From assembly GCA_965205015.1 (NCBI GenBank), contig OZ242029.1, positions 3,328,001 to 3,392,000 of the forward strand: DNA of 64,000 nt, given 5' to 3'. This document shows positions 1 through 18,866 of this stretch, piece by piece. The notes below the pieces were generated by a model, which was not told the origin of the DNA, did no database searches, and saw only the letters and a program-made list of their open reading frames with translations. The number at the start of each line of letters is the position of its first letter. Position 1 is the stretch's first letter. Source of the stretch: Candidatus Poribacteria bacterium. GTDB taxonomy: Bacteria; Poribacteria; WGA-4E; WGA-3G. The position numbers were made by a program, and so were the translations under genes.

Positions 1-297
1 TATTAAACTCCCGATTGGACTGAGGTTACTCTTTTTAAGGACCTTGATATCCTCTTTAGAGAGATCTTTTTTCGGGCGAAAAATGCAAAGCATCCTCTCA
101 TGCTCCATAGCGTTTTCAACAGCCGCAGTTGCCATCTTTCCGGTGAGTGCAACGTGATGTGGCGGAAAGGGTGGCACCGGCGGCATATATGGAAAAACGA
201 CGAGGTCATCTAAGGGGAGGAGTGGGAGTTCCTGTACCAGTTCTTCTTCAGTGGTATTTTCGTCTCTGTTTTCTTCTTCTCTCTCTTTGGTTTCCAT
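1..297 (-). CDS. lon: ATP-dependent Lon protease, N-terminal part (runs off the window start)
   Basis: Not in the ORF track. My translation from ATG at 297 (SD AAAGGAGAGA just upstream) gives METKEREEE...QELPLLPLDDLVVFPYM..., matching the LON N-domain start motif LP(L/V)LPLRD.V.FP. Confidence 0.75.
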   Translation of the reverse strand, partial: METKEREEENRDENTTEEELVQELPLLPLDDLVVFPYMPPVPPFPPHHVALTGKMATAAVENAMEHERMLCIFRPKKDLSKEDIKVLKKSNLSPIGSLI

Positions 298-352
298 GTT
301 TCTCTCCTTTTTAAAATAGATGTATCATTACGCATGAATTTATCGAACAGTG

Positions 353-369
353 TGCAATATCTGTGCCAA
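353..369 (-). promoter_or_regulatory. Sigma-54 (-24/-12) promoter upstream of lon
   Basis: Minus strand reads TTGGCACAGATATTGCA, matching YTGGCACGNNNNTTGCW with exact GG-N10-GC spacing, 55 nt upstream of the lon start. Confidence 0.7.
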
Positions 370-501
370 TAACAATTGCTTGAAATAACGGGAATTTCCA
401 CTAAATGTCTGCCAAACTGGCACAGTCTTAAAAAGGTTATGATGTCATCGGTCAATTTGACCTCTTGATAAGGAACGGATAGAGAGCACAATCGGAGAAC
501 A

Positions 502-2460
502 TCAGGGCCAAAATTGATATAGCGTAGTGTTTGCAAGAATGCTGCCGATGCTCCACAAACTTCCACTGATGTAATCTCCGAGGGCAAGTCCGAGGAAGAG
601 CGGCACCATACGTCTGTAAGCCTTGAGTCCTCCTTGATGCAATACAACTGCCTTTGCGACCCATGCAACGAAAAGACAGCTCCAGAGGTTGTACATGCCC
701 CAACTGTTTGCCATAGCATAGCCGAGTGGATGTAGGGGCCACCACAGGAAACGGGTTCGCAATAACATGAGTCCGAGAGCGACTCCTGCGCCGCCACCCA
801 TAAAGGCGAGAGCGGGGACATCCGTGCCCTGTGGATAATTCAACCAGTTTTCAAGTTGTCGATAAACGCCTCTGCCAAACCCTAATGCCCAGGGACCGTA
901 ATAACCGGTCTCTGCTCCATGTCTGTAGTAACTATCCAAGAGTAGCCAGAATATAACGATCGCACCGACGAGGGTCGCGATAACAATTGCCGCGGCGGTG
1001 TGCTGTGGACGGATTTGCCGTCGCTCTGAAATTTTCAATGCCTCTAATTCTTGCGGCATCGGGTGCGCTCGATAGGCTCGGTTGAAGAACATGTACAGCG
1101 AAAAAACCGTTTTTGTACGTGTCGTCAAACGCTGGGTGCCGAACGCTGTTACGATTAACCCGTGCGGGTCGACTCTGTGCAAGTCATGAACTAAGAATCC
1201 TAATTCTGCCCGAAGTCGGGCAATCATCGTCGCGAGCAAAAAATAAAGCCCGAAAAAGATCGGAATTACCCAAAGTGACATTCCTGCCTTATAGGAAAAC
1301 ATGGACAAAAACAGCATCCCGATCAAGATGCCGAGAAAAGCGATGTGATAAGGCATCGGTTCACGCTGCATCTCCACCTGAGATGTGCCTCGAAACCCAT
1401 CTACGACTCCGGTAAAAATCCGTTTGATATGCGTTCTGCCGACCCATCCAGCGGTCCCGAGAAGCACCATATATGCCCCGAAACTCTGGGCATCCGCATA
1501 AGGAAAACCCGGTAGATTCCGTATCCCAAGAATACTACCTGCCATTAACTCAAATTTGTATACCCAGTAGAACGCCCAGCACGAAAAAAGTAGATCCAGT
1601 GGAATGAGGAAACTAATCCCAATGGCAAAAGGATAAAACGAGAGACGCACACCCCCCATCGCATTCCAAGGGCGACCGGTGAAGTACTGATGGATGTTTT
1701 GCCGTTTAACGGGTAGATATGGAACTGCTGGATAAATCGAATTAAGTAAGTTTAGGATGCTAATGGCTACGGCAATACTGAAGCCCAACCACATCAGCTT
1801 GTTTTTGAAAAAACTTGTATTCGGCTCCGTCATCGCGAGCGGAAGTTGAATAATTGGATACGTCAGTCGTTCCCGCTCAGTCCATTGGATACGAAGCAGT
1901 GTGTTGATGCACAGCATAACGAACATCAACACGAGGATAAAAATTGTCCACCACACCACAGGAGCCGCCCAAGCGGTAAGATGTGCCTTTCGATAGAGGC
2001 TGGATTGCCCCTCATAATACCCCGATAAGACGCTGGTGTCTTGAACGGTTAGCCATGTCGGAAGTTCCTTCCAAAAAAGTTGCTGCCATTCATTCTCAGA
2101 CGTTGCGAACCGAAAAGGATGCCCGAGGATCGTAACAAGGATTTCCATCATATCGTGCGAGCAGAGCGAAGAAACAATGCACAACATGACGTAGATTGTA
2201 AGCAATTCCGCCGGGGTCAGCTTCAGTTTTGGAGATAATTTTCCCAATACTGCCCCGAACACCATCAGCCAAAAGATTATGAAAATGACATTGGACAGGG
2301 GATGAATTAACGTCGGATGTGTATAGCGGACAACTTCCAACTCGATAATCCAAAAAACGTTAAGAGGAATCAGAAGCATTGCGATGAGAAATGCTTTGGG
2401 TGTTAACCCACGTTCGCCTCTGAACAAGCTTCGCTCTACATCCCCTGTATTGTCTGTCAT
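502..2460 (-). CDS. Polytopic membrane protein, DUF6785/DUF6784-like (OPT-superfamily-like transporter)
   Basis: Many TM helices and motifs QW...ERL.YPI.QLP and RFLWWPLHPLGY. Start moved to MTDN (2460) because the ORF-track extension lies inside a repeat array. Confidence 0.7.
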   Translation of the reverse strand: MTDNTGDVERSLFRGERGLTPKAFLIAMLLIPLNVFWIIELEVVRYTHPTLIHPLSNVIFIIFWLMVFGAVLGKLSPKLKLTPAELLTIYVMLCIVSSLCSHDMMEILVTILGHPFRFATSENEWQQLFWKELPTWLTVQDTSVLSGYYEGQSSLYRKAHLTAWAAPVVWWTIFILVLMFVMLCINTLLRIQWTERERLTYPIIQLPLAMTEPNTSFFKNKLMWLGFSIAVAISILNLLNSIYPAVPYLPVKRQNIHQYFTGRPWNAMGGVRLSFYPFAIGISFLIPLDLLFSCWAFYWVYKFELMAGSILGIRNLPGFPYADAQSFGAYMVLLGTAGWVGRTHIKRIFTGVVDGFRGTSQVEMQREPMPYHIAFLGILIGMLFLSMFSYKAGMSLWVIPIFFGLYFLLATMIARLRAELGFLVHDLHRVDPHGLIVTAFGTQRLTTRTKTVFSLYMFFNRAYRAHPMPQELEALKISERRQIRPQHTAAAIVIATLVGAIVIFWLLLDSYYRHGAETGYYGPWALGFGRGVYRQLENWLNYPQGTDVPALAFMGGGAGVALGLMLLRTRFLWWPLHPLGYAMANSWGMYNLWSCLFVAWVAKAVVLHQGGLKAYRRMVPLFLGLALGDYISGSLWSIGSILANTTLYQFWP

Positions 2461-7597: not shown

Positions 7598-10500
7598 TTA
7601 ATCATCATCACCAGCTTCGCCTATTTCTGGCTCAGTGGCGGATACCTCTAAGTTTTGGAAACTGGAGAATCCACTTCCAGCGGGTATAAGTCTACCGAGA
7701 ATAACGTTTTCCTTCAGCCCGAAGAGTCTATCGGTCTGTCCACTAACAGCTGCATCCGTTAGCACCTTCGTTGTTTGCTGGAAGGAGGCGGCTGAGATGA
7801 AGCTATCTGTACTTAAGGCTGCTTTACTGATGCTTTGAAGAATCGGTTCACCCGTTGCAGGCGTGCCGCCTGTTTCTTCAATCTCACTATTAACGCGTTC
7901 AAATTGCTTGCGTTGCACTTCATCGTTGGGATAGAAGTTTGTGTCGCCCGGCTCAGTGATGAGAATTTTGGTTAACATCTGTCGGACGATTGCCTCAACG
8001 TGTTTATCGTTGATAATTCCCTTGCCGTAAACTTTCTGGACTTCATCGACGAGATATGACCAGACCGCCTCTTCACCCTCAACCGATACACCTTCAATAG
8101 TCGTACGCCCGATACTCAAAATATCGTGTGGATTGAGATAACCATCGGTGAGGGGTTCACCGGCATTCACCCAATCGTCTTCAGCGACGCGTCGTTTCTC
8201 GTCAGGTATCTGGTAGAGACGACTCTGATAGCCTTCGTGCTCAATGCGGTAGGCAGGGATCCCTGATTTTGTGCCAGCGGATTGGACGTAGCCTTCAATT
8301 TCAGCGATTTCTGCGGCTTCATCGCGTTTTGGACGGCGCGCTTCAAACAATTCAGTGACACGTGGGATACCCACAACAATGTCAAGGTTCGCTGTTCTTT
8401 CATGGAGTTCTGCCAGCGTTTCTCCCTTCTGAATGCTATCACCCTCTGTTAGAGAGAAGGAGTAACCTGTAGGAATGACATGGGGCACCCGATTTCCATC
8501 CGATGTTTCGACTTCAATACGCATCCGCAACGACAATTCATCGACCTCGAATCCGGGGTACCGTTTCACTGCCTGATCGTACGCTTCTTCAGACAATTCG
8601 TCGCCAAGGGCGTACTTGAAATTGGGATGATGGACCTCGGTGATGGTATGGGTCACCTTCTGATTCGCTTTCTCAAGGGCACGGAATTTCTTTGAAGATA
8701 GAATCGTCCCAACCTCGAGCGGTTCATCAACATCCCGGCTATCTTCCGTGATCCGGTAAACTAACTCAGTATCGAACCCTTTGAATTTGCGGTTATACGT
8801 CTTATATTCTTCTTCACTCAGTTCAGTACCAACCTCCAAGTTCAATTCAGAGTGATGGACACTAACGACCTTGTAGAGTCCCTTGACTTTCTCCGGTAAC
8901 GAAGCATCCGTCTTACGGAGTGCCTTATACTCGATCTCGGTGAGACGTTGACCGACACTTAACGCTGTCGTCCCATCTTCGATGTTTGTCACTTCGTACT
9001 GACGGGTAACTTCAAAGCCTTTGTAATTTCGGCGGTTTGCGGATGATTCCTTTTGTGTCAAAAGACCGTCAACTTGTAGTGGACAGTCAGGATGATTAAC
9101 CGATGTGATACGGTACATGCGTTCTGCGGCAAAGCCACCCGCGGTGCTCTTACTTTCCGAAGTGGTGAACCCAGGGTAGCGTTCATCGGACTGCTTTTTC
9201 TCATTTTCAGTAAGCAGATCTCCCGGTTTGAGATCGCAGTCCGGATGAAGTGCCTGTGTTACACGGTGGCGTAGGGGCGGTGCATCAAAACCTGGAAACC
9301 GTTTGTGTAAACGGGGTAAAGCTGTCTCGCTCAATTCTTCGCCTTCTGTAAGGGGGCATTCGGGATGATACACAACCGTCACATAGTGCTGTTCAACATC
9401 CTGTTTTTCAACTTTAAATGCGCGTTCAAGGTGTTGATACTCTGTGCGGGCATCCTCGTACTCACGGGCCGTTAACGTCTGATCGACTGCAAAATCAGCA
9501 ACGTCTGTATGTACAACGTAAACGGGTTTTGCCTCAATCTCAAATGGATTCAGCAACGGAGCGATTGCCTCTGGGGCCACTTCGTCTCCTACCTTAAATC
9601 CGAAATCTTTGCTGGTCCCCTTATCTATCTCGGTTATACAGTACACACGATTAAAGCTTGCATCCCGTCCAGAGGGATTCGCAGTATCGGGGCCATCAGC
9701 GGATCCATTCGTCCGATCAGAAGAAGCAGTACCTGCAGCTGCTGTAAGGTTTTCAATAGCAATACGCTCGCCTGTTTCTGCATCCAAGTAATGCCATTCT
9801 CCACTGACGCCTTGCCGGACCTCTGCTCTCAATTGCTCTATCTCTGCTTCAGTAAGTTGGGTGTCAACACGCAATGGAAGCTTAGGGTGTTGCACTCGCG
9901 TTACTCGGTATTTTGGGGTCACAAATCGTTGGAAGCCATATTCCATCTGTGCCTTGACGTATTCTGCCTGAGACAGTCTGTCCCCTACCTTCAGATCACA
10001 GTCGCTATCCAAAACCTCTGTGACTTGATACAGCCATGTTTTCGTATCAAAGCCTTTATAGCGTTCCGTGTTTTCCATGTACTGCTTCTCACTGAGCAGT
10101 TCATCTTCACGCAATTGACAATGCGGATGATTAATTTTCTGGACCTTATATGCTAGACCATCGAGGTTGCCTCTGTTTTCGGTAGCGACCCAGAGTTCGC
10201 CCTCCTCTTCGACCGTCCGACCGGGTTGGAAGTCTCGGAAGTACACGGTGCCGCTGGCTTTAGACAAAATTCTGCGCTGACGCGCTTCTGAAACATCTTC
10301 AACGGCACCACCGGTGTGGAACGTCCGCATGGTGAGCTGCGTCCCCGGTTCACCGATAGACTGTGCTGCAATGATGCCGACAGCTTCACCAACGTTGACG
10401 AGGTCATTCGTCGTTAAATCGTTACCGTAACATTTTGCACAAATGCCATCGTCGGTTTGGCACGTGAGTACAGATCGCACTTTTACCACGCGTATGCCAA

Positions 10501-13297
10501 GTGTGTCAATCTGGTTCGCCATCTCCGCCGATATGATAGTACCGGACGGAACAAGCGTATCTCCGTTCTCTGGGTGGAGAATGTCTTCAGCGGCGGTGCG
10601 TCCGTTAATTTTGAAAGCAAGGTCGCCTCCCTCTGTCGCAAACTTTTGAATGCTATTGAGAGTGCCGCAGTCTTCAGCAGTGACACGAACATCTTGTGCC
10701 ACATCTACCAGTTTTCGAGTCAGGTAACCGGATGCGGCGGTTTTCATCGCCGTATCCACCAAACCTTTACGGGATCCGTAGGTAGAGTTAAAGTAGTCAA
10801 GGACCTCCAGACCGTCACGATACGAGGTGGTGATCGGCGGAATGAGAATTTCACCGCTCTGCTTCGCTTTCAATCCGATAACGGCACTGATTTGCATAAA
10901 TGGATTCTTCCGTGCGCGTGCGCCACTATCTGCCATGATATGTACCGGACTGAAGCCCTCTACTGTTTTGTTGCGCACCTCTGACCCATCGGGATCGATG
11001 TATGGGTGAATCTTTCGAGGATCGGCGCGCTCAACAAGAGATGTCTCTAAACGGGGCAAATCATCGAACATCTCATCCTCAACCTCTTTGAGCGCAGCCA
11101 ACCAGATGCGAATCTGCTCGTTTTCATGTTCTTCGCGCTCGGTCGCTGTGACGTTGCTAAGGAGTTCGTCAATATCTGCCTTTGCTTTGTTCACCAAGGC
11201 ATCACGATTGTCAGGGGTGATGTAATCCCGGATGCCGGGCGAAATACCGCTCAGCGTTGCATACTCGAATGCGAGTTTCTGGACTTTCTCAAGCACTTCA
11301 GTCGTGACACGTGTGCCGAGTTCGTTAAAACACCGATGGATCAGATCAGATAATTCCCTGCCGTCAGCTTCGGCATTGAAGAATGGAAGTTGCTGCTCGG
11401 AGTTTTCATCCTCCCACTCTAAACCCGATGGCAGTACCTCGTTAAAGATAACTCTGCCCACTGTTGTTAGAATGGGTTCAGGGGTTTTCTGGCCATCCCC
11501 GTTGGATGGGAAGAAGAGTTGGATGCTGTCGTGCAGCTTAAGTCGACCCGCTGCATGAGCGGTGAGGACCTCTTCTGGGTGGGTGTAGCGACGATGAGAC
11601 CACGACTTTTCACTGAGCTTCTTAAAAGTATCAGGATCCCTTGTTGTGTAGGCATCATGGAGAAGTACTGCATCCGCTGCGTGCCCTGGCAACACCTTTG
11701 TCAGGAAACTGGGTCCGAGTACCATGTCAAGCTCCGGAACAGCAACAGGATCACCGTGTGAGGGCTTGAGAATGTTATGACTGCTGAGCATGAGGAGTTT
11801 CGCTTCAGCTTGTGCTTCCACAGTAAGTGGGACGTGAACTGCCATCTGGTCCCCGTCAAAATCGGCGTTAAACGCTTTACAGACGAGTGGCGGAATTCTG
11901 ATGGACTTGCCCTCTACTAAGACAGGCAAAAATGCCTGAATGCCGAGTCTGTGCAAAGTTGGTGGACGGTTGAGTAAAACTGGATGATCCGCAATGACTT
12001 CCTCTACGACTTCCCAGACAGGAGAATCCGAATCAACGTGTTCAGCAATATGCTTCGCCCGCTTAATAGTCTGTGTATGGCCATACGCTTGAAGTCGCTC
12101 AATGATGAACGGCTTAAACAACTCCACAGCCATTCGTTTGGGGATCCCACACTGATGCAGCCCCAATTCGGGCCCAACGACGATGACGCTACGTCCAGAG
12201 TAGTCAACCCGCTTACCGAGCAGATTCTGACGGAACCTTCCGATTTTACCTTTGAGAACATCGGCAAGAGATTTCAGCGGACGGTTACCCGGACCGGTAA
12301 CACGCCTACCGTGCCGTCCGTTGTCGAAGAATGCGTCGACTGCCTCCTGTAACATCCGTTTCTCGTTACGGAGGATGACTTCTGGAGAGCGGAGTTGTAT
12401 CAATTTACGCAATCGGTTGTTCCGATTAATAACACGGCGATACAAATCGTTCAGGTCGCTGGTAGCAAAGCGTCCACCTTCAAGAGGGACGAGAGGGCGC
12501 AAATCTGGCGGGATGACAGGAATAACATCCAGAATCATCCACTCGGGCCGCTGTCCGATTTCTGCAAAGTCAGCCATCTGTTTCAGCTGCTTGGCAATCT
12601 TCAACTTTTTCTGCTGGCTCGTTGTTTGCTCTAATTCTTCGGTTAATTTCTCTCTTTCCGTTTCGAGGTCGATATTACTCAGAATCTCGCGAACGACTTC
12701 AGCGCCGGTGCCAGCCCGAAATCCGCCCCAGTACTTATTACTGTTTTCTATGTACTCGATCTCGTTTAATACCTGTCCACGTTCAAGCGGACACTCTGGA
12801 TCCGTCACTTCAACGACAATGAACCCCTCAAAATAGAGCACACGCTCAACATCACGTGAAGAGAGTTCACAAAAAGTGCCGATGCGAGAAGGAATTCCTT
12901 TGAAGTACCATATATGCGATACAGGGGCGGCAAGTTGGATATATCCGAGCCGATCTCTGCGAACCCGCTGTTGTGTGATTTCAACACCACAGCGGTCACA
13001 TATCATCCCTTTATGTTTAATCCGTTTATACTTGCCACAGTTACACTCCCAGTCCTTTTGGGGTCCGAAGATAGCCTCACAAAAGAGGCCCTCCGGTTCA
13101 GGACGGAAGGAACGGTAGTTAATAGTCTCCGCCTTCTTAACCTCGCCGCAACTACAGGTCCCTTTCTCGGGGCAGATAAAAGGTTCATCCGCTGCCTGGG
13201 CGGGATTCCGACGTTTGCAACTGGTTTTCTTCGACTCATCTTTTATCTGATCAGGCGAGGCTATTTTTATGGAGATGCTGTCAAATGCCGTGTTCAT
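7598..13297 (-). CDS. rpoC: DNA-directed RNA polymerase beta' subunit with a ~640-aa trigger-loop insertion
   Basis: NADFDGD catalytic motif, Zn ribbon CNC...CDRC, GKRVDYSGRSVI, TQLTMRTFH and GLKENVILG; 1899 aa. Confidence 0.98.
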   Translation of the reverse strand: MNTAFDSISIKIASPDQIKDESKKTSCKRRNPAQAADEPFICPEKGTCSCGEVKKAETINYRSFRPEPEGLFCEAIFGPQKDWECNCGKYKRIKHKGMICDRCGVEITQQRVRRDRLGYIQLAAPVSHIWYFKGIPSRIGTFCELSSRDVERVLYFEGFIVVEVTDPECPLERGQVLNEIEYIENSNKYWGGFRAGTGAEVVREILSNIDLETEREKLTEELEQTTSQQKKLKIAKQLKQMADFAEIGQRPEWMILDVIPVIPPDLRPLVPLEGGRFATSDLNDLYRRVINRNNRLRKLIQLRSPEVILRNEKRMLQEAVDAFFDNGRHGRRVTGPGNRPLKSLADVLKGKIGRFRQNLLGKRVDYSGRSVIVVGPELGLHQCGIPKRMAVELFKPFIIERLQAYGHTQTIKRAKHIAEHVDSDSPVWEVVEEVIADHPVLLNRPPTLHRLGIQAFLPVLVEGKSIRIPPLVCKAFNADFDGDQMAVHVPLTVEAQAEAKLLMLSSHNILKPSHGDPVAVPELDMVLGPSFLTKVLPGHAADAVLLHDAYTTRDPDTFKKLSEKSWSHRRYTHPEEVLTAHAAGRLKLHDSIQLFFPSNGDGQKTPEPILTTVGRVIFNEVLPSGLEWEDENSEQQLPFFNAEADGRELSDLIHRCFNELGTRVTTEVLEKVQKLAFEYATLSGISPGIRDYITPDNRDALVNKAKADIDELLSNVTATEREEHENEQIRIWLAALKEVEDEMFDDLPRLETSLVERADPRKIHPYIDPDGSEVRNKTVEGFSPVHIMADSGARARKNPFMQISAVIGLKAKQSGEILIPPITTSYRDGLEVLDYFNSTYGSRKGLVDTAMKTAASGYLTRKLVDVAQDVRVTAEDCGTLNSIQKFATEGGDLAFKINGRTAAEDILHPENGDTLVPSGTIISAEMANQIDTLGIRVVKVRSVLTCQTDDGICAKCYGNDLTTNDLVNVGEAVGIIAAQSIGEPGTQLTMRTFHTGGAVEDVSEARQRRILSKASGTVYFRDFQPGRTVEEEGELWVATENRGNLDGLAYKVQKINHPHCQLREDELLSEKQYMENTERYKGFDTKTWLYQVTEVLDSDCDLKVGDRLSQAEYVKAQMEYGFQRFVTPKYRVTRVQHPKLPLRVDTQLTEAEIEQLRAEVRQGVSGEWHYLDAETGERIAIENLTAAAGTASSDRTNGSADGPDTANPSGRDASFNRVYCITEIDKGTSKDFGFKVGDEVAPEAIAPLLNPFEIEAKPVYVVHTDVADFAVDQTLTAREYEDARTEYQHLERAFKVEKQDVEQHYVTVVYHPECPLTEGEELSETALPRLHKRFPGFDAPPLRHRVTQALHPDCDLKPGDLLTENEKKQSDERYPGFTTSESKSTAGGFAAERMYRITSVNHPDCPLQVDGLLTQKESSANRRNYKGFEVTRQYEVTNIEDGTTALSVGQRLTEIEYKALRKTDASLPEKVKGLYKVVSVHHSELNLEVGTELSEEEYKTYNRKFKGFDTELVYRITEDSRDVDEPLEVGTILSSKKFRALEKANQKVTHTITEVHHPNFKYALGDELSEEAYDQAVKRYPGFEVDELSLRMRIEVETSDGNRVPHVIPTGYSFSLTEGDSIQKGETLAELHERTANLDIVVGIPRVTELFEARRPKRDEAAEIAEIEGYVQSAGTKSGIPAYRIEHEGYQSRLYQIPDEKRRVAEDDWVNAGEPLTDGYLNPHDILSIGRTTIEGVSVEGEEAVWSYLVDEVQKVYGKGIINDKHVEAIVRQMLTKILITEPGDTNFYPNDEVQRKQFERVNSEIEETGGTPATGEPILQSISKAALSTDSFISAASFQQTTKVLTDAAVSGQTDRLFGLKENVILGRLIPAGSGFSSFQNLEVSATEPEIGEAGDDD

Positions 13298-13416: not shown

Positions 13417-16400
13417 CTATTCTTCATCCTTATCGAGGGATACATGAAGTCCAAGGGTTTGGAGTTCGCGGACCAAGACTTTGAACGATTCCGGTGTACC
13501 GGGCGGGTCAGGGTTTAACCCTTTCACAACCGACTCGTAAATCTCTCTCCTGCCGAGAACATCATCTGATTTGAGCGTGAGCATTTCTTGGAGTGTATGG
13601 GCTGCACCATAAGCCTCCAATGCCCAGACCTCCATCTCACCGAGTCGTTGGCCCCCGTGTTGCGCCTTGCCCCCTAACGGCTGCTGTGTAACAAGCGAAT
13701 AAGGTCCCGTTGAGCGGGCATGCATTTTATCAGCAACAAGGTGGTTCAGCTTGAGGAAATAGACGTAACCCACCGTTACTTCTTGGGCAAACGGTTCACC
13801 CGTCCTACCATCAAAGAGGATGCTCTTACCGGTTTGTTTACTGCGTTCGGGAAGCGTGGTCTTACCAAGTTCTTTAAAGATTTCTTCTTCTGTCGCGCCA
13901 TCAAATACAGGGGATTCCACTTGGATACCGAGTTCATGGCACGCCCATCCGAGGTGAATTTCCAAAATCTGACCGACATTCATTCGAGAGGGCACCCCTA
14001 ACGGGTTCAGGACCAATTCAACCGGTGTCCCATCTGGGAGATAGGGCATGTCCTCAGCGGGCAAAATTTTGGCAACGACACCTTTGTTGCCATAACGGCC
14101 CGCCATCTTATCACCGACGGAAATCGGACGCTTACTTGCGACATAAACTTTGACGCGTTTAATGACGCCTGGTTTCAGTTCGTCCCCCATCTCTAACTGT
14201 TGAAGTGCCCGTTCTTTTTCCTCAGTATAAGTGGTTATCCTGCCTTGTGCCATTTCTTCAACACGTTGAATATGCTCTCTGGCATCGACCTCGGTTACAT
14301 GAATATCTGAAAAAGTCAAGCTACATGATTTACGCGCTTGTTGGTAGTTATCATCAGAAACATATTCTCCAACAGACAATGTACACTCTGGGTCGAAAAC
14401 AGCCGTAATGTGCCAGACCTTGTCGGATTTCAAATCCTTGGTTGTCTGATTGAGTGATGCCAGTTCGTCCGGCGTCAATCGCTGTCCGGCTGTTATAGGA
14501 CGCGCAGGGAAATCTCTGGATACTCGCAAAAAATCGGTGTCGGAAAGTTCTTGACCTTCGGTCAAAGGGCACTCGGGATCGAAAACTTCCTTAATTTGCC
14601 AAAACAGATCGGCTTGTAAACCGGGGTATGCCTGACTGGCGTGTGTCCATTCTTCTTCGTTCAGTCTCTGGGTCTCAACGACAGGGCATCCAGTTGCTTC
14701 AATCTGTTCGTTAACCCCAGTCTCAAATTCGGAACGCCCACACGGTTGCAACACATCTACGAGTTCATAGAAATCATAGTTATCGGGTTCTGACTCACCC
14801 TCGGTTACCAATACACCAAATCGTGCGCCTGCTGCAGTAAGCATTTCCGTTAGGTGCTCGGAATTAGACCCGTTTTCCGTGTCCTCACCGGCACAAACAG
14901 CAATGGCAATCACACTGTTATCGTAACCCTGAAGTACAACATCGGCCTCTTCTGTAGGAAAGGTTTGTTCCCCTGATTCCTTAGGTTCCGTTTCTTGGAA
15001 GAATGGTGCTGTACTCCCCAAGGTCGGTTTGCACACTTCGCTAAAGTAGTCTTGCACGGTTGAAGCATTCGCGGTATGGACCACAATAGTCGGAATAGGT
15101 TCAGGTACATCCGTTACCCGATAACCTGCTTCAGCGGTAAAGGCTTCGGCGTTTGTATCTTCGGTTACCAGATGGTACGCATCTGCAGTGAAACCGGAAA
15201 GATAAACGTCCAGAACCTCAGCCGTCAGAATATCGCCAGCGTTAGCGAAGGGTTCAGTCTCACCTTTAGTACCCGTAACCGTGTAAAGCGGATCAGCGAG
15301 TTGGCATCCGATGAGCGTTTTGCGAATTTCTTCGATTTTTCGGCGACGGATAGAAGCGATCTGCTCACGCGAAGTCTCTTCAATCTCCTTGCGTTTCGAT
15401 TCATATCGCAAATTGTCAGCCATTGATAACCCTGAGTCGCCTTGTGTCCAACCTCCGCGACGGGAGGTCGTATCCGGCTTACGGGAGAATACTTTTACGT
15501 CAATGACGACCCCTTCAACGCCGGGACGTACATAAGTGGAGGCATCCCTGACTTCTTTGACTTTTTCACCAAAGATTGCCCGTAGGAGTTTCTCTTCTGG
15601 ACCATATTCGCTTTCACCTTTCGGTGTAATCTTTCCGACGAGGATGCTGCCTGCCCCTACAACGCTCCCAACGCGGATAATGCCCTCTTCGTCGAGTTGT
15701 GTGAGACGCTGCTCGCTAACGTTCGGGATATCACGGGTTATTTCCTCTGGACCTACTTTCGTTTCACGTGCTTCCACTTCAAATTCTTCAATGTGGATAG
15801 AGGTAAAGGTGTCCTCTTTAATGAGCGTTTCACTTATCAGGATAGAGTCTTCATAATTGTGGCCGCCCCACGGCATATAAGCACATAACACATTCCGTCC
15901 GAGAGCGAGTTCACCATCTTCTGTAGAGGTGCCATCCACAATAACCTGTCCGGCTTCAACTGTATCGCCTACCGCAACGATAGGACGCTGATGGATACAG
16001 GTGCCGCTATTACTGCGTTTGAAAGTCTGGAGTTTGTAAACATCGTAGCCCATTTCGCTGAACGTATTCTCACCTTTGTCGTGGTGAAGTGTTTCACCGG
16101 TATAGATGAGAATCTCATCGGCAGAAACACTCGTGACGGTGCCGGCTCGCTGAGCGGTAATGAGCGCACCCGAATACAGTGCCGCGTGTGCTTCCATGCC
16201 TGTTCCGACGAGCGGGGCTTCTGGACGAATAAGCGGTACAGCCTGACGTTGGTGATTCGCACCCATCAAAGCACGGTTTGCGTCCTCGTGTTCCAGGAAT
16301 GGAACGAGTGCTGCAGAAATTCCGACGATTTGCTGCGGGGAAACACCGATATAGTTTACTTTCTCCATCGGGAGTGACAGCACATCCTCGCCACTGCGTA

Positions 16401-18711
16401 CCGGTAGCGCCTGCTCAGATGCATCACCATTTCCGGTTTGTTCAGCATCCGGTGGGAGAGGCTTCGCGGCGATATACGCAGTATCCTCGCTATCTGCTGT
16501 GAGATATTCCACCGGGCCCAGCACTGGTCCCTCCTCACCCGCCTCAACCGTATGATAAGGCGTTTCTATAAAGCCGTAAGGGTTTATCCGTCCGTAACAC
16601 GCCAAAGAAACGATAAGCCCGATGGACGGTCCCTCAGGTGTCTCCAAGGGGCAGACACGTCCATAGTGCGTTGGATGTACGTCCCGAACAGCTGCCGTTG
16701 CCCTATCTCGGTGAAGTCCCCCTGGACCAATCGCTGAGATACGGCGTTTATGCGTCAGTTCATCCAACGGATTAATCTGTTGCATAAACTGGGACAGTTG
16801 GTTCGATCCAAAGAATTCTCGGAGTGCCATCATCAACGGTTTCGGATTTATGAGTGAAGACGGGACGACCTTTGCAATATCGTTGTTGGTACTCAAGCGT
16901 TCGCGCGTGGTTCTGCGAATCTGGAATAAACCCATTCGGAACTGGTTTTCGAGGAGTTCACCGATAACACGCACGCGACGATTACCGAGGTGGTCCAGAT
17001 CGTCTTTCGGTTTATGTCCATTATGGACATCAAGCAGGTAAGCTATAGTCGCAGCAATATCTTCGCGACGTTGCGTTCGGAGCGTTTCTTCGGGGAAATT
17101 TCCATAAGTCGGCACATAATCAATTTTCTGATCCGGTTTCCAGCCAGGCACATCATCCGGGCACAACCCGAAATATTGACAGGTTTCGTTGAATTTTCGA
17201 TTAAGTTTGTATCGTCCAACGACCCCTAAATCGTATCGGTGCGCGTCAAAGAGCAACCATGAAAGATGTTTACGAGCGTTCTCTGTACTCGCGGGATCTC
17301 CGGGTCTCAGCGTGCGGAAAATCTCAACGAGTGCGGCATCTTGTAACGCGCCCTTTTGATCGGAGGGGACTTCATAGTCGGCTTGTCGGTCGCGCTCCAA
17401 CGTATTACGCAAGGATTGGATATGCTGGCAATCTTCCGCATCTAGGACTGTAAGTGACTCAACGCCAGCCTCACTGAGACGTTCCAATTCCGTTTCGGTG
17501 AGCAGCGTATTCGCTGTGAGGAGCACTTCGTCAGCTTTTGGATTGGTAACGTCTTCAGCTTCTGGATCGATAACGTCTTCAGCGCAGACCCTATCAACCC
17601 ATTCCTGATTGTCTGGAGACGAAAGCTGTTCAGCTGTGAACGCTTTACGTCCGTAGCGGGCACGCGCCTCTTCGTATTCTGAATTCGTTAGGACTTGTCC
17701 CGGAATGAGTTCGCATCCACTATTGTGGGTATCAATCACACGCCGAAAAAGTTCAGTTTCGAAACCCTTCCATTTTCTACGCAGATTCGTACGCTTCTTA
17801 TATGTGAGTTCTTCTCCAATCTCCAGTGGGCAGTCCGCATCGGTTACCTCTGTAACCCGGTAACACCTCTCTACCTCAAGGTCAGGGTAGTCTTTATTGG
17901 CTTGTCGAAAGTCCGCGGCATCCAGCACATCACCGGGTTTGACTTGCTTTGCGGGTCCTTCTACATGGGTAACCTGCCATCCGGCAAGCACGAGACGTTC
18001 CGTCTTGGCGTAAAGTTTCAGGATATCGGCGTCCGACTCCCAACCCAATGCGCGGAGCAGTACGGTAGCAGGCAGTTTTCTGCGTTTGTCAATGCGTACA
18101 TAAATCTGATCTTTAGTGTCTATCTCAAATTCGACCCATGCCCCTCGATACGGAATAATTTGGGCAGTCGGGGTCCGCCGTCCAGTCGGTAATGCCTTTT
18201 CAAGAAAAATAACACCGGGTGAACGCTGTAGTTGACTTACAATGACACGTTCGCTACCATTGACAATGAAGCTGCCATTTTCGGTCATTAAAGGGACTTC
18301 GCCGAGGTATACATCGGATTCTCGGATATCCACAACGTGAGGTTCATCTGCGTCCGAGTCTGCCTGCCGCTGGACAAGCATAATACGGGCAGTAAGAGAT
18401 ACCTGATACGTTACACCGCGCGCGACACACTCTTGGAGCGTATATTTCGGTTCACCAAGGCTATAATTGACAAATTCGAGACTATTAACTTCCGAAAAAT
18501 CGCGAATACCGCTCTTTTCTCCTGTCTGAAATACTTCCTTAAACACCGCTTGGAGGCCAGCATCCGAACGTTCATTAAGTGGGACCTTTCGTTGTAAGAA
18601 GGCATCATAGGCGAGTTTCTGGGTCTCTATGAGGTTCGGGAGCGGGGTTTGAACCTGCGTTTTGGCAAAAGTTTTTCTCTTCTTATTTTTCGGGCTGAGT
18701 TTTTTGTTCAC
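13417..18711 (-). CDS. rpoB: DNA-directed RNA polymerase beta subunit with large insertions
   Basis: [41 protein letters not shown] and [12 protein letters not shown]. Probable GTG start at 18711 (SD GGGAGA), which lies downstream of the promoter. Confidence 0.98.
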
Positions 18712-18837
18712 TGAATGAAGTCTCCCTACTTTGCGGTGGTTACGCAGTTTACAAATAGACTTTTGAAAAAACCTGAAAAAACCTGCTTTCTTAACTACTT
18801 TTTCCAATCTTAATATGGTAATATAGCATAACAGAAT

Positions 18838-18866
18838 ATTGTACATTATTTTTCGCAAAATGTCAA
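18838..18866 (-). promoter_or_regulatory. Sigma-70-type promoter of rpoBC
   Basis: TTGACA-17 nt-TACAAT on the minus strand. Confidence 0.7.

Follow-up and report, generated by a model that had tools for sequence, protein, structure and literature searches.

Twelve tandem modules related to the clamp element beta'-bD2 in a trigger-loop insert of RNA polymerase from Candidatus Poribacteria

A 64,000-nucleotide stretch from contig OZ242029.1 of a Candidatus Poribacteria bacterium (the window, to which all coordinates refer unless another source is given) encodes the RNA polymerase (RNAP) subunits beta and beta', and the trigger loop of its beta' subunit carries an insert of 641 amino acids (aa) in which a single SBHM domain is split around twelve tandem modules of about 40 aa. 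In all cellular RNA polymerases the trigger loop is the catalytic element that moves; the source bacterium is presumably a sponge symbiont. Profile comparisons indicate that the twelve modules are related to bD2, a small clamp element in the core of the same subunit, and further copies were detected in beta. We regard the insert as a genuine, conserved and lineage-specific insertion at the SI3 site, made of an SBHM and 12 sLC modules derived from bD2, and propose for it the origin and mechanism set out below; the probability that we give to this reading as a whole is about 0.7.

Borders and anatomy of the trigger-loop insert

The products of rpoB and rpoC both contained the full set of Pfam RNAP domains, and each was about 500 aa longer than its Escherichia coli counterpart (1342 aa for beta and 1407 aa for beta'). 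In beta', the motifs TFHTGG (residue 992) and DIVVGIPRV (residue 1639) bordered an insert whose position in an alignment was that of SI3 of E. coli, which makes SI3 (beta'i6) its site in the trigger loop. An earlier note on this DNA, made from the sequence alone, had described an insert of about 640 aa between these motifs, as against about 190 aa for E. coli SI3. The borders and coordinates proved exact, and the length reported for the E. coli insert is 188 aa (PMC6970531). The parts of beta' that are considered here are given below, with the evidence for each in parentheses (E, expect value; HMM, hidden Markov model of the repeats; pLDDT, predicted local distance difference test score).

7598-13297, minus strand: rpoC, RNAP beta' subunit, 1899 aa (open reading frame and translation; Pfam Rpb1 domains 1-5; PDB beta' chains at E = 0)
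12701-12835, minus strand: core beta'-bD2, the N-terminal sLC, residues 155-199 (hhalign 97.8%; HMM 16.3 bits)
8384-10306, minus strand: trigger-loop insert at the SI3/beta'i6 site, residues 998-1638, 641 aa (borders TFHTGG and DIVVGIPRV)
10151-10306, minus strand: N-terminal half of the split SBHM/HABAS, residues 998-1049 (VIA-align match to SI3 structures)
9791-10150, minus strand: sLC-type repeats 1-3, residues 1050-1169 (HMM 51.7-59.7 bits; pLDDT about 90, the best-modelled part of the fold)
9644-9790, minus strand: small additional beta unit, then a disordered linker, residues 1170-1218 (pLDDT 31-33 at insert residues 190-215)
8525-9643, minus strand: sLC-type repeats 4-12, residues 1219-1591 (HMM 35.6-62.2 bits)
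8384-8524, minus strand: C-terminal half of the split SBHM/HABAS, residues 1592-1638 (VIA-align; aligns with the last SBHM of the inserts of about 200 aa in relatives)
7820-7984, minus strand: core beta'-bD7 region, the C-terminal sLC, residues 1772-1826 (positional equivalent of E. coli 1258-1312)

The whole insert, which has a net charge of -34, was modelled by AlphaFold2 with 44 homologues. The mean pLDDT was 80.5 but the predicted template modelling score (pTM) was 0.46, indicating that the single units were well modelled and the overall shape was not. When this model was compared by VIA-align with 48,161 chains, the aligned range (9..641 of the model) corresponded to the two flanks. These matched E. 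coli SI3 in 4iqz_A (Z 11.8, root-mean-square deviation (rmsd) 2.5 Å over 84 residues, 24% identity) and in 2auk_A (Z 11.0), as well as a chain of the tobacco plastid-encoded polymerase (PEP; Z 9.8) and the SI3 tail of Synechococcus (8h02_A, Z 9.4); 2auj_D, from the Thermus beta' insert, was aligned to the SBHM part of the model with a Z of 5.3. In the model the two flanks together form one SBHM, which is joined to both arms of the trigger loop and bears the array in its hairpin loop. This agrees with the earlier description of one SBHM-like unit split around the repeats.

All trigger-loop inserts described so far are SBHM repeats (bioRxiv 10.1101/2021.01.27.428476; PMC10895346), and by this precedent the modules of the array could be SBHM units as well, the insert being another many-SBHM SI3 like that of cyanobacteria. 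We consider this highly improbable. SBHM was found only in the flanks and only these parts of the model aligned with SBHM structures, the other 533 of the 641 residues (array and linker) being non-SBHM, so that the insert is not composed of SBHM (HABAS) repeats. Moreover, the 40-aa unit with its 10-residue helix is half the size of an SBHM, a sandwich-barrel hybrid of about 80-90 aa with a GD-box-like strand, no Pfam family was found in the insert, and the sequence homology of the repeats goes to bD2. Among the matches listed for a model of three repeats there was no SBHM entry, although absence from such a list does not amount to exclusion.

The twelve repeats and their kinship to bD2

The repeats start at beta' residues 1050, 1090, 1130, 1219, 1260, 1304, 1344, 1395, 1434, 1475, 1514 and 1550, are about 40 aa long (range 36-51 aa) and have the consensus xxYxVTxVxHPxxxLxVGxxLSExEYxxxxxxYxGF. 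In the model, every unit begins with a strand running on from the unit before it; about 11 loop residues follow, then a strand of two residues and a helix of 10 residues. Identity to the first repeat was 5-37%. An HMM built from the 12 repeats of the window recovered all 12 with 35.6-62.2 bits. No tandem repeat was found in the array at the DNA level, which argues for an old, diverged array and against an artefact of assembly.

The earlier note had also pointed to a single occurrence of the same motif in the core N-terminal part of beta' (12719-12823), with a counterpart in E. coli. This similarity is real and far beyond chance. The repeat HMM matched the core copy (residues 159-193) with 16.3 bits, and in a search of the 1179 six-frame open reading frames of the window the only matches outside the array were core bD2 and rpoB. 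A six-frame search of two complete genomes from the lineage gave 15 matches in each (E <= 0.01), all of them confined to rpoC (the 12 of the array and the core copy) or rpoB, and here the core copy reached 28.4-28.8 bits (E about 8e-6 to 9e-6). When the 12 repeats were compared by hhalign with this core element from seven taxa, including E. coli, the probability was 97.8% and the E was 8.6e-13 over 34 columns with 32% identity. The E. coli counterpart lies at beta' 140-182; when the repeat HMM was run against the E. coli beta and beta' subunits, it matched only beta' 158-172 (2.9 bits) and gave no match in beta, hence no sequence link to E. coli beta-i4. Against PDB sequences the repeat profile had no significant match, and the best one to a beta' chain (7l7b_D, 140-162, E 0.62) was at the bD2 position. 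These sequence comparisons indicate that the repeats are paralogues of the clamp element beta'-bD2, homology to which is a mark of sLC membership, and descent probably ran from the core to the array.

Only 32 of 1.84 billion representative proteins matched the repeat HMM at E <= 0.001. Pfam annotation of 13 of the 32 returned five RNAP subunits or fragments, all of them with module copies, two TPR proteins (P0139 and P0145), two compositional matches (P0140, which has no module copy, and P0153, with only an 8.4-bit stretch) and four proteins without a family. The two TPR proteins, which are not RNAP subunits (837 aa for P0139 and 938 aa for P0145), have 2-3 module copies each (16.8-25.5 bits), arranged in the order of two HSDR_N-like nuclease-fold regions, modules, membrane segment, coiled coil and TPR repeats. 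No protein of this type was matched in the two complete lineage genomes searched.

Structural comparison of the repeats

The core elements bD2 and bD7 of beta' (residues 142-181 and 1255-1298 in Xanthobacter) are homologous to each other and are classified together in CATH 3.30.60.280 under the name sLC, for "small left claw" (Alvarez-Carreno et al. 2024, PMC11515920). Independently of that classification, structure searches with a model of three repeats (pLDDT 73.4) matched best where bD7 lies in many beta' chains, among them E. coli 1261-1310, Thermus 1376-1425 and Mycobacterium tuberculosis 1163-1211. These matches covered 41-47 residues with an rmsd of 1.6-2.9 Å and a Z of 4.3-5.2, below the level at which the tool is to be trusted; the E. 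coli match had a Z of 4.3-4.7 and other beta' chains reached 5.2. With Foldseek, 47 of the 50 matches listed for the same model were beta' chains, all at E > 0.001, and some of these extended over 40 columns with 28-30% identity and an rmsd of 1.4-2.3 Å. Since the sequence points to bD2, the structure points to bD7 and PMC11515920 makes both one fold, we take the repeats to be sLC modules.

Module copies in beta and at other sites

The repeat HMM also found copies in rpoB, which the earlier note had not mentioned. The features of this gene are as follows.

13417-18858, minus strand: rpoB, beta subunit, open frame of 1813 aa, start uncertain (open reading frame; Pfam Rpb2 domains)
17605-17985, minus strand: three sLC-type modules at the beta-i4 (SI1) site, residues about 292-418 (HMM 34.0, 9.0 and 3.1 bits)
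17431-17595, minus strand: canonical BBM2/BEAN-like unit of beta-i4, residues 422-476 (counterparts in an alignment: E. coli beta 294-340 and the one unit that array-less relatives have)
14299-14607, minus strand: two sLC-type modules in the beta-i9 (SI2) hook, residues about 1418-1520 (HMM 14.0 and 13.3 bits)

In the alignment the three beta-i4 modules sit after E. coli beta residue 228, upstream of the one canonical unit, and the two beta-i9 modules lie within about 330 aa that E. coli lacks at the corresponding place, between residues 960 and 998 of its beta subunit. In P0133, a 253-aa C-terminal fragment of beta' from another source, three module copies stand directly before the conserved PATGEPILQSISKA stretch, in beta'-bD7, so that in some relative the module has a third site in beta'. 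The copies in the array, at beta-i4, at beta-i9 and at the bD7 site of P0133 mark the module as a general insertion unit in this clade.

Another part of the beta-i9 hook, about 230 aa long (residues about 1183-1417), is of unassigned make-up. The rpoB open frame opens with TTG, and its residues 8-53 (about 50; window 18700-18858) have no E. coli counterpart; the true start probably lies further downstream. The C-terminal 230 residues of beta have a second, distant match (35% identity) in two genomes, at G036:C1:5272288-5272944 and G050:C1:4763223-4763882, in frames of 1065 and 1024 aa, respectively, away from rpoBC.

Comparison of the repeats with BBM2/BEAN units

The insert types catalogued in PMC11515920 are BEAN (CATH 3.90.105.10; E. 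coli beta 240-338) and HABAS (SBHM), and the BEAN of E. coli beta 240-338 is the BBM2 pair of Opalka 2010 (PMC2939025). BEAN is described as a unit of two brackets and about 90 aa, each bracket having a helix and two strands, in antiparallel arrangement; according to the same source, lineage-specific inserts are BEAN in beta and mostly HABAS in beta', with HABAS only at the trigger-loop site (PMC11515920). The repeats might then be ordinary BBM2/BEAN units, as catalogued in beta SI1 and beta'-bD5, that have reached a new site. They were compared with a canonical BBM2/BEAN profile of nine units, which came from five relatives as well as from E. coli and the window.

Some similarity was found. 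An hhalign match over 22 columns (P 5.2e-4) was in the expected register of second strand, 'xxLT' and helix, MAFFT aligned the third module of beta with the position of BBM2a in E. coli (residues 249-290), and beta-i4 is reported to hold 1-6 tandem BBM2 (Opalka 2010, PMC2939025). On the other hand, the hhalign probability of the repeats was 30.8% against the nine canonical half-units and 97.8% against bD2, a difference that supports the proposal of the earlier note that a distinct core element was multiplied and placed on the trigger loop. The values for bD2 against the canonical units and for the repeats against the single E. coli beta-i4 sequence were both 0.7%. The repeat HMM gave the canonical unit of the window -0.9 bits and found nothing in E. 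coli beta. The TGD/E motif of the RNAP-beta BEAN (PMC11515920) is present in the canonical units and absent from the repeat consensus, and a 40-aa repeat contrasts with a BEAN domain of about 90 aa with two brackets. By the criteria of PMC11515920, which include a full-domain HHalign probability > 70% (the profiles used here cover half-units), the sequences of the repeats thus do not qualify them as BEAN members, given the 30.8% and the lack of TGD/E. Among the matches listed by three structure searches with the three-repeat model there was no beta chain and no beta-i4 structure, which does not exclude the fold. An origin of the array from ordinary BBM2/BEAN units is, in our view, quite improbable; a distant kinship of sLC to one BEAN bracket is possible.

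Distribution and conservation in Poribacteria

Ten genome loci and the named database matches were all from Candidatus Poribacteria. Both borders were recognizable in 118 of the 120 homologues listed, with inserts of 622-1053 aa and 10-17 detected repeats. In a set of 81 genomes of the phylum, 53 had at least seven matches to the repeat HMM, 20 had exactly one and eight had none. Four of the 20 single-match genomes were examined, and in all four the sole genome-wide match was bD2 (20.3-31.1 bits, compared with 16.3 bits for bD2 of the window). The beta' subunit of these relatives measured 1428-1445 aa and had an E. coli-like trigger-loop insert of 201-212 aa. Their bD2 shares the DP(D/E)C-L-E signature with the repeats. 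Since bD2 is the sole match in relatives that have no array, the clamp element of the lineage itself is indicated as the source of the modules.

The beta-i4 of the same four relatives has one canonical unit, and that of L038, from a genome without any match (G004), has two. No sLC copy was found at beta-i4 in any of these five array-less relatives, and the one match to the repeat HMM among them (13.9 bits) was in an extra N-terminal stretch of L035. This locus, the rpoB region of G064, has a region with an HNH-like Cys/His motif in the first 150 or so residues of its open frame. Loci L035-L037, from three relatives, have in common a different insert, about 70-80 aa long, which follows the canonical unit of beta-i4, and L035 has a near copy of it upstream as well.

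Mean pairwise identity, determined from 946 pairs of 44 homologues, was 87% for the core, 81% for the SBHM flanks, 68% for the array and 28% for the disordered linker, and the inserts of the homologues were 62-85% identical to that of the window. This pattern of identity indicates that the array is under constraint. It also bears on the possibility that the array is a tolerated and largely functionless expansion, produced by slippage or duplication in a permissive loop and serving as a safe harbour for selfish nuclease domains. The range of copy number and of insert length would fit such an expansion, as would the presence of PD-(D/E)xK-type nuclease domains (MTES_1575/DUF559, 79-92 bits) within repeat 2 in relatives and the report that deletion of the cyanobacterial Si3 causes no marked change in catalysis (PMC10895346). 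However, conservation is far higher in the array than in the disordered linker next to it, and the repeats, which have diverged from each other to 5-37% identity, are yet kept as orthologues across genomes. There is no DNA-level repeat to drive slippage, the array is kept in 53 of the 81 sampled genomes and the same module has become fixed at two further sites in beta. We consider a functionless array unlikely.

The nuclease domain in repeat 2 is in frame in the trigger-loop inserts of two other Poribacteria genomes, L006:10001-12499 and L010:10001-12643 (Pfam MTES_1575, 92 and 79 bits, respectively, with a cut-off of 38.2; also DUF559) and is found as well in P0124, at residues 1328-1421. The insertion is accompanied by a partial extra module in these relatives, and in the window the corresponding empty site lies between residues 1097 and 1098 (about 10005-10007).

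Secondary-channel factors and proposed mechanism

The N-terminal domain of Gre was found in none of the 81 phylum genomes. The C-terminal domain of Gre gave weak matches in three of them, all in open frames of 1346-1455 aa, and dksA matched one genome of 81, below the cut-off. The controls for the Gre N-terminal domain, the Gre C-terminal domain and dksA were positive in 9, 9 and 4 of 14 known genomes, respectively. The phylum thus appears to be without the secondary-channel factors Gre and DksA.

In E. coli, each cycle of trigger-loop folding is accompanied by a rotation of Si3, and TraR, when bound at the secondary channel, is in contact with Si3 as well as with the beta lobe-Si1 (PMC6970531). 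The cyanobacterial Si3, which is built of eight SBHMs and is longer than the body of the enzyme, swings by about 50 Å and shields the site of Gre and DksA, factors that cyanobacteria do not have (PMC10895346).

The array, we infer, originated in this phylum from its own bD2, which would have been duplicated into the SBHM of SI3 and then amplified, one of the two ancestral SBHMs being lost; copies would also have spread into beta, where the module was placed at beta-i4 and beta-i9. Being physically attached to the trigger loop, the array must move on every folding and unfolding. By analogy with the Si3 of E. coli and of cyanobacteria, it most likely forms an elongated, acidic and fairly rigid arm; stiffness is suggested by the continuous strands modelled across consecutive units. 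Such an arm would run beside the secondary-channel rim and the beta lobe and could adjust how the trigger loop folds, and with it pausing and open-complex stability; it could also cover the docking site of the secondary-channel factors that are apparently missing in the phylum. A further step, which we put forward tentatively and hold to be rather doubtful, is that the trigger-loop array and the copies at the beta lobe and flap base would together make up a new, moving superstructure around the secondary channel that, in a phylum without Gre or DksA, would take over the control of gating or proofreading, in convergence with the cyanobacterial Si3.

Several results weigh against the interpretation of the insert as an SBHM bearing bD2-derived sLC modules with the mechanism proposed here. 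The structural support for the sLC fold is weak by itself, with a Z of about 5 or lower for a 40-residue unit, and Foldseek gave no match at E <= 0.001 with either the whole insert or the three-repeat model. The sequence link to bD7 was not significant (hhalign 4.9%, P 0.008). With a pLDDT of 73 for the three-repeat model and a pTM of 0.46 for the whole insert, the shape of the array is not fixed by the models. The variable copy number and the nuclease domains inside the array of some relatives fit a permissive site. Striking as the parallel with cyanobacteria is, Gre and DksA are also missing in the array-less relatives, so that their absence does not track the array and is not its specific cause; at most it was permissive for growth of the insert. 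Finally, deletion of the cyanobacterial Si3 barely alters catalysis (PMC10895346), and a large trigger-loop insert need not, then, have a strong catalytic role.

Comparison with known systems

The closest known elements are the sLC domains bD2 and bD7 described in PMC11515920. Like them, the repeats measure about 40-45 aa, with profile homology to bD2 and the best structural match at bD7. Domains of this type are listed there among the rare lineage-specific inserts of beta', within bD2, bD4, bD5 and bD7 (PMC11515920). Here, in contrast, twelve tandem copies lie inside an SBHM on the trigger loop (the beta'-uD5 site), where that paper has only HABAS/SBHM, and copies are also present in beta, where it reports BEAN. 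The proteins of unique architecture in Table S4 of the paper, 16 in number, come from DST, Firmicutes and Mycoplasmatota; the name Poribacteria is absent from this table, from the main text and from one spreadsheet, the supplementary PDF being outside the scope of the comparison. The literature searched held no description of an sLC array on the trigger loop, nor of the RNAP of Poribacteria. The type of module and the insertion site are thus each known, and it is the combination of a 12-copy sLC array in the trigger-loop SBHM with copies in beta that has no counterpart in the literature searched.

The BBM2 of Iyer et al. (2004), or BEAN, is also a small unit of strands and helix that inserts repeatedly in beta and beta', and its profile is weakly similar to that of the repeats (P 5.2e-4). 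The modules in beta adjoin a canonical beta-i4 unit of this kind, from which the repeats differ in unit size, in having no TGD/E and by the low hhalign probability. With module copies in beta and beta' alike, the polymerase of this lineage appears to reuse small parts of its own core to build insertions.

E. coli SI3, with 188 aa and two SBHMs, has the same insertion point, and the base SBHM of the window insert resembles it (Z 11.8, 24% identity); the window insert has one SBHM instead of two. Members of the phylum that have no array have kept an insert with two SBHMs, which indicates that the array originated independently of the cyanobacterial Si3. The latter has been called the largest known lineage-specific insert (PMC10895346). 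It is likewise giant and of similar size, its first SBHM is split with the rest nested inside, its tail matches the SBHM of the window (8h02_A, Z 9.4), and both its lineage and Poribacteria are without detectable Gre or DksA. The Poribacteria array, on the other hand, consists of sLC modules and not of SBHMs, rpoC is not split, and the inserts of relatives reach 1053 aa. Poribacteria would thus be a second lineage with a giant trigger-loop insert, one that equals or exceeds the cyanobacterial Si3 in size (641 aa in the window) and is made from another building block. The nuclease domains nested in the inserts of relatives show that mobile elements, too, make use of this site on the surface of an essential enzyme. 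As a second lineage, Poribacteria offer a natural test of the load that the trigger loop tolerates, and a further, independent instance of the trade-off that has been proposed between having a giant Si3 and losing Gre and DksA.

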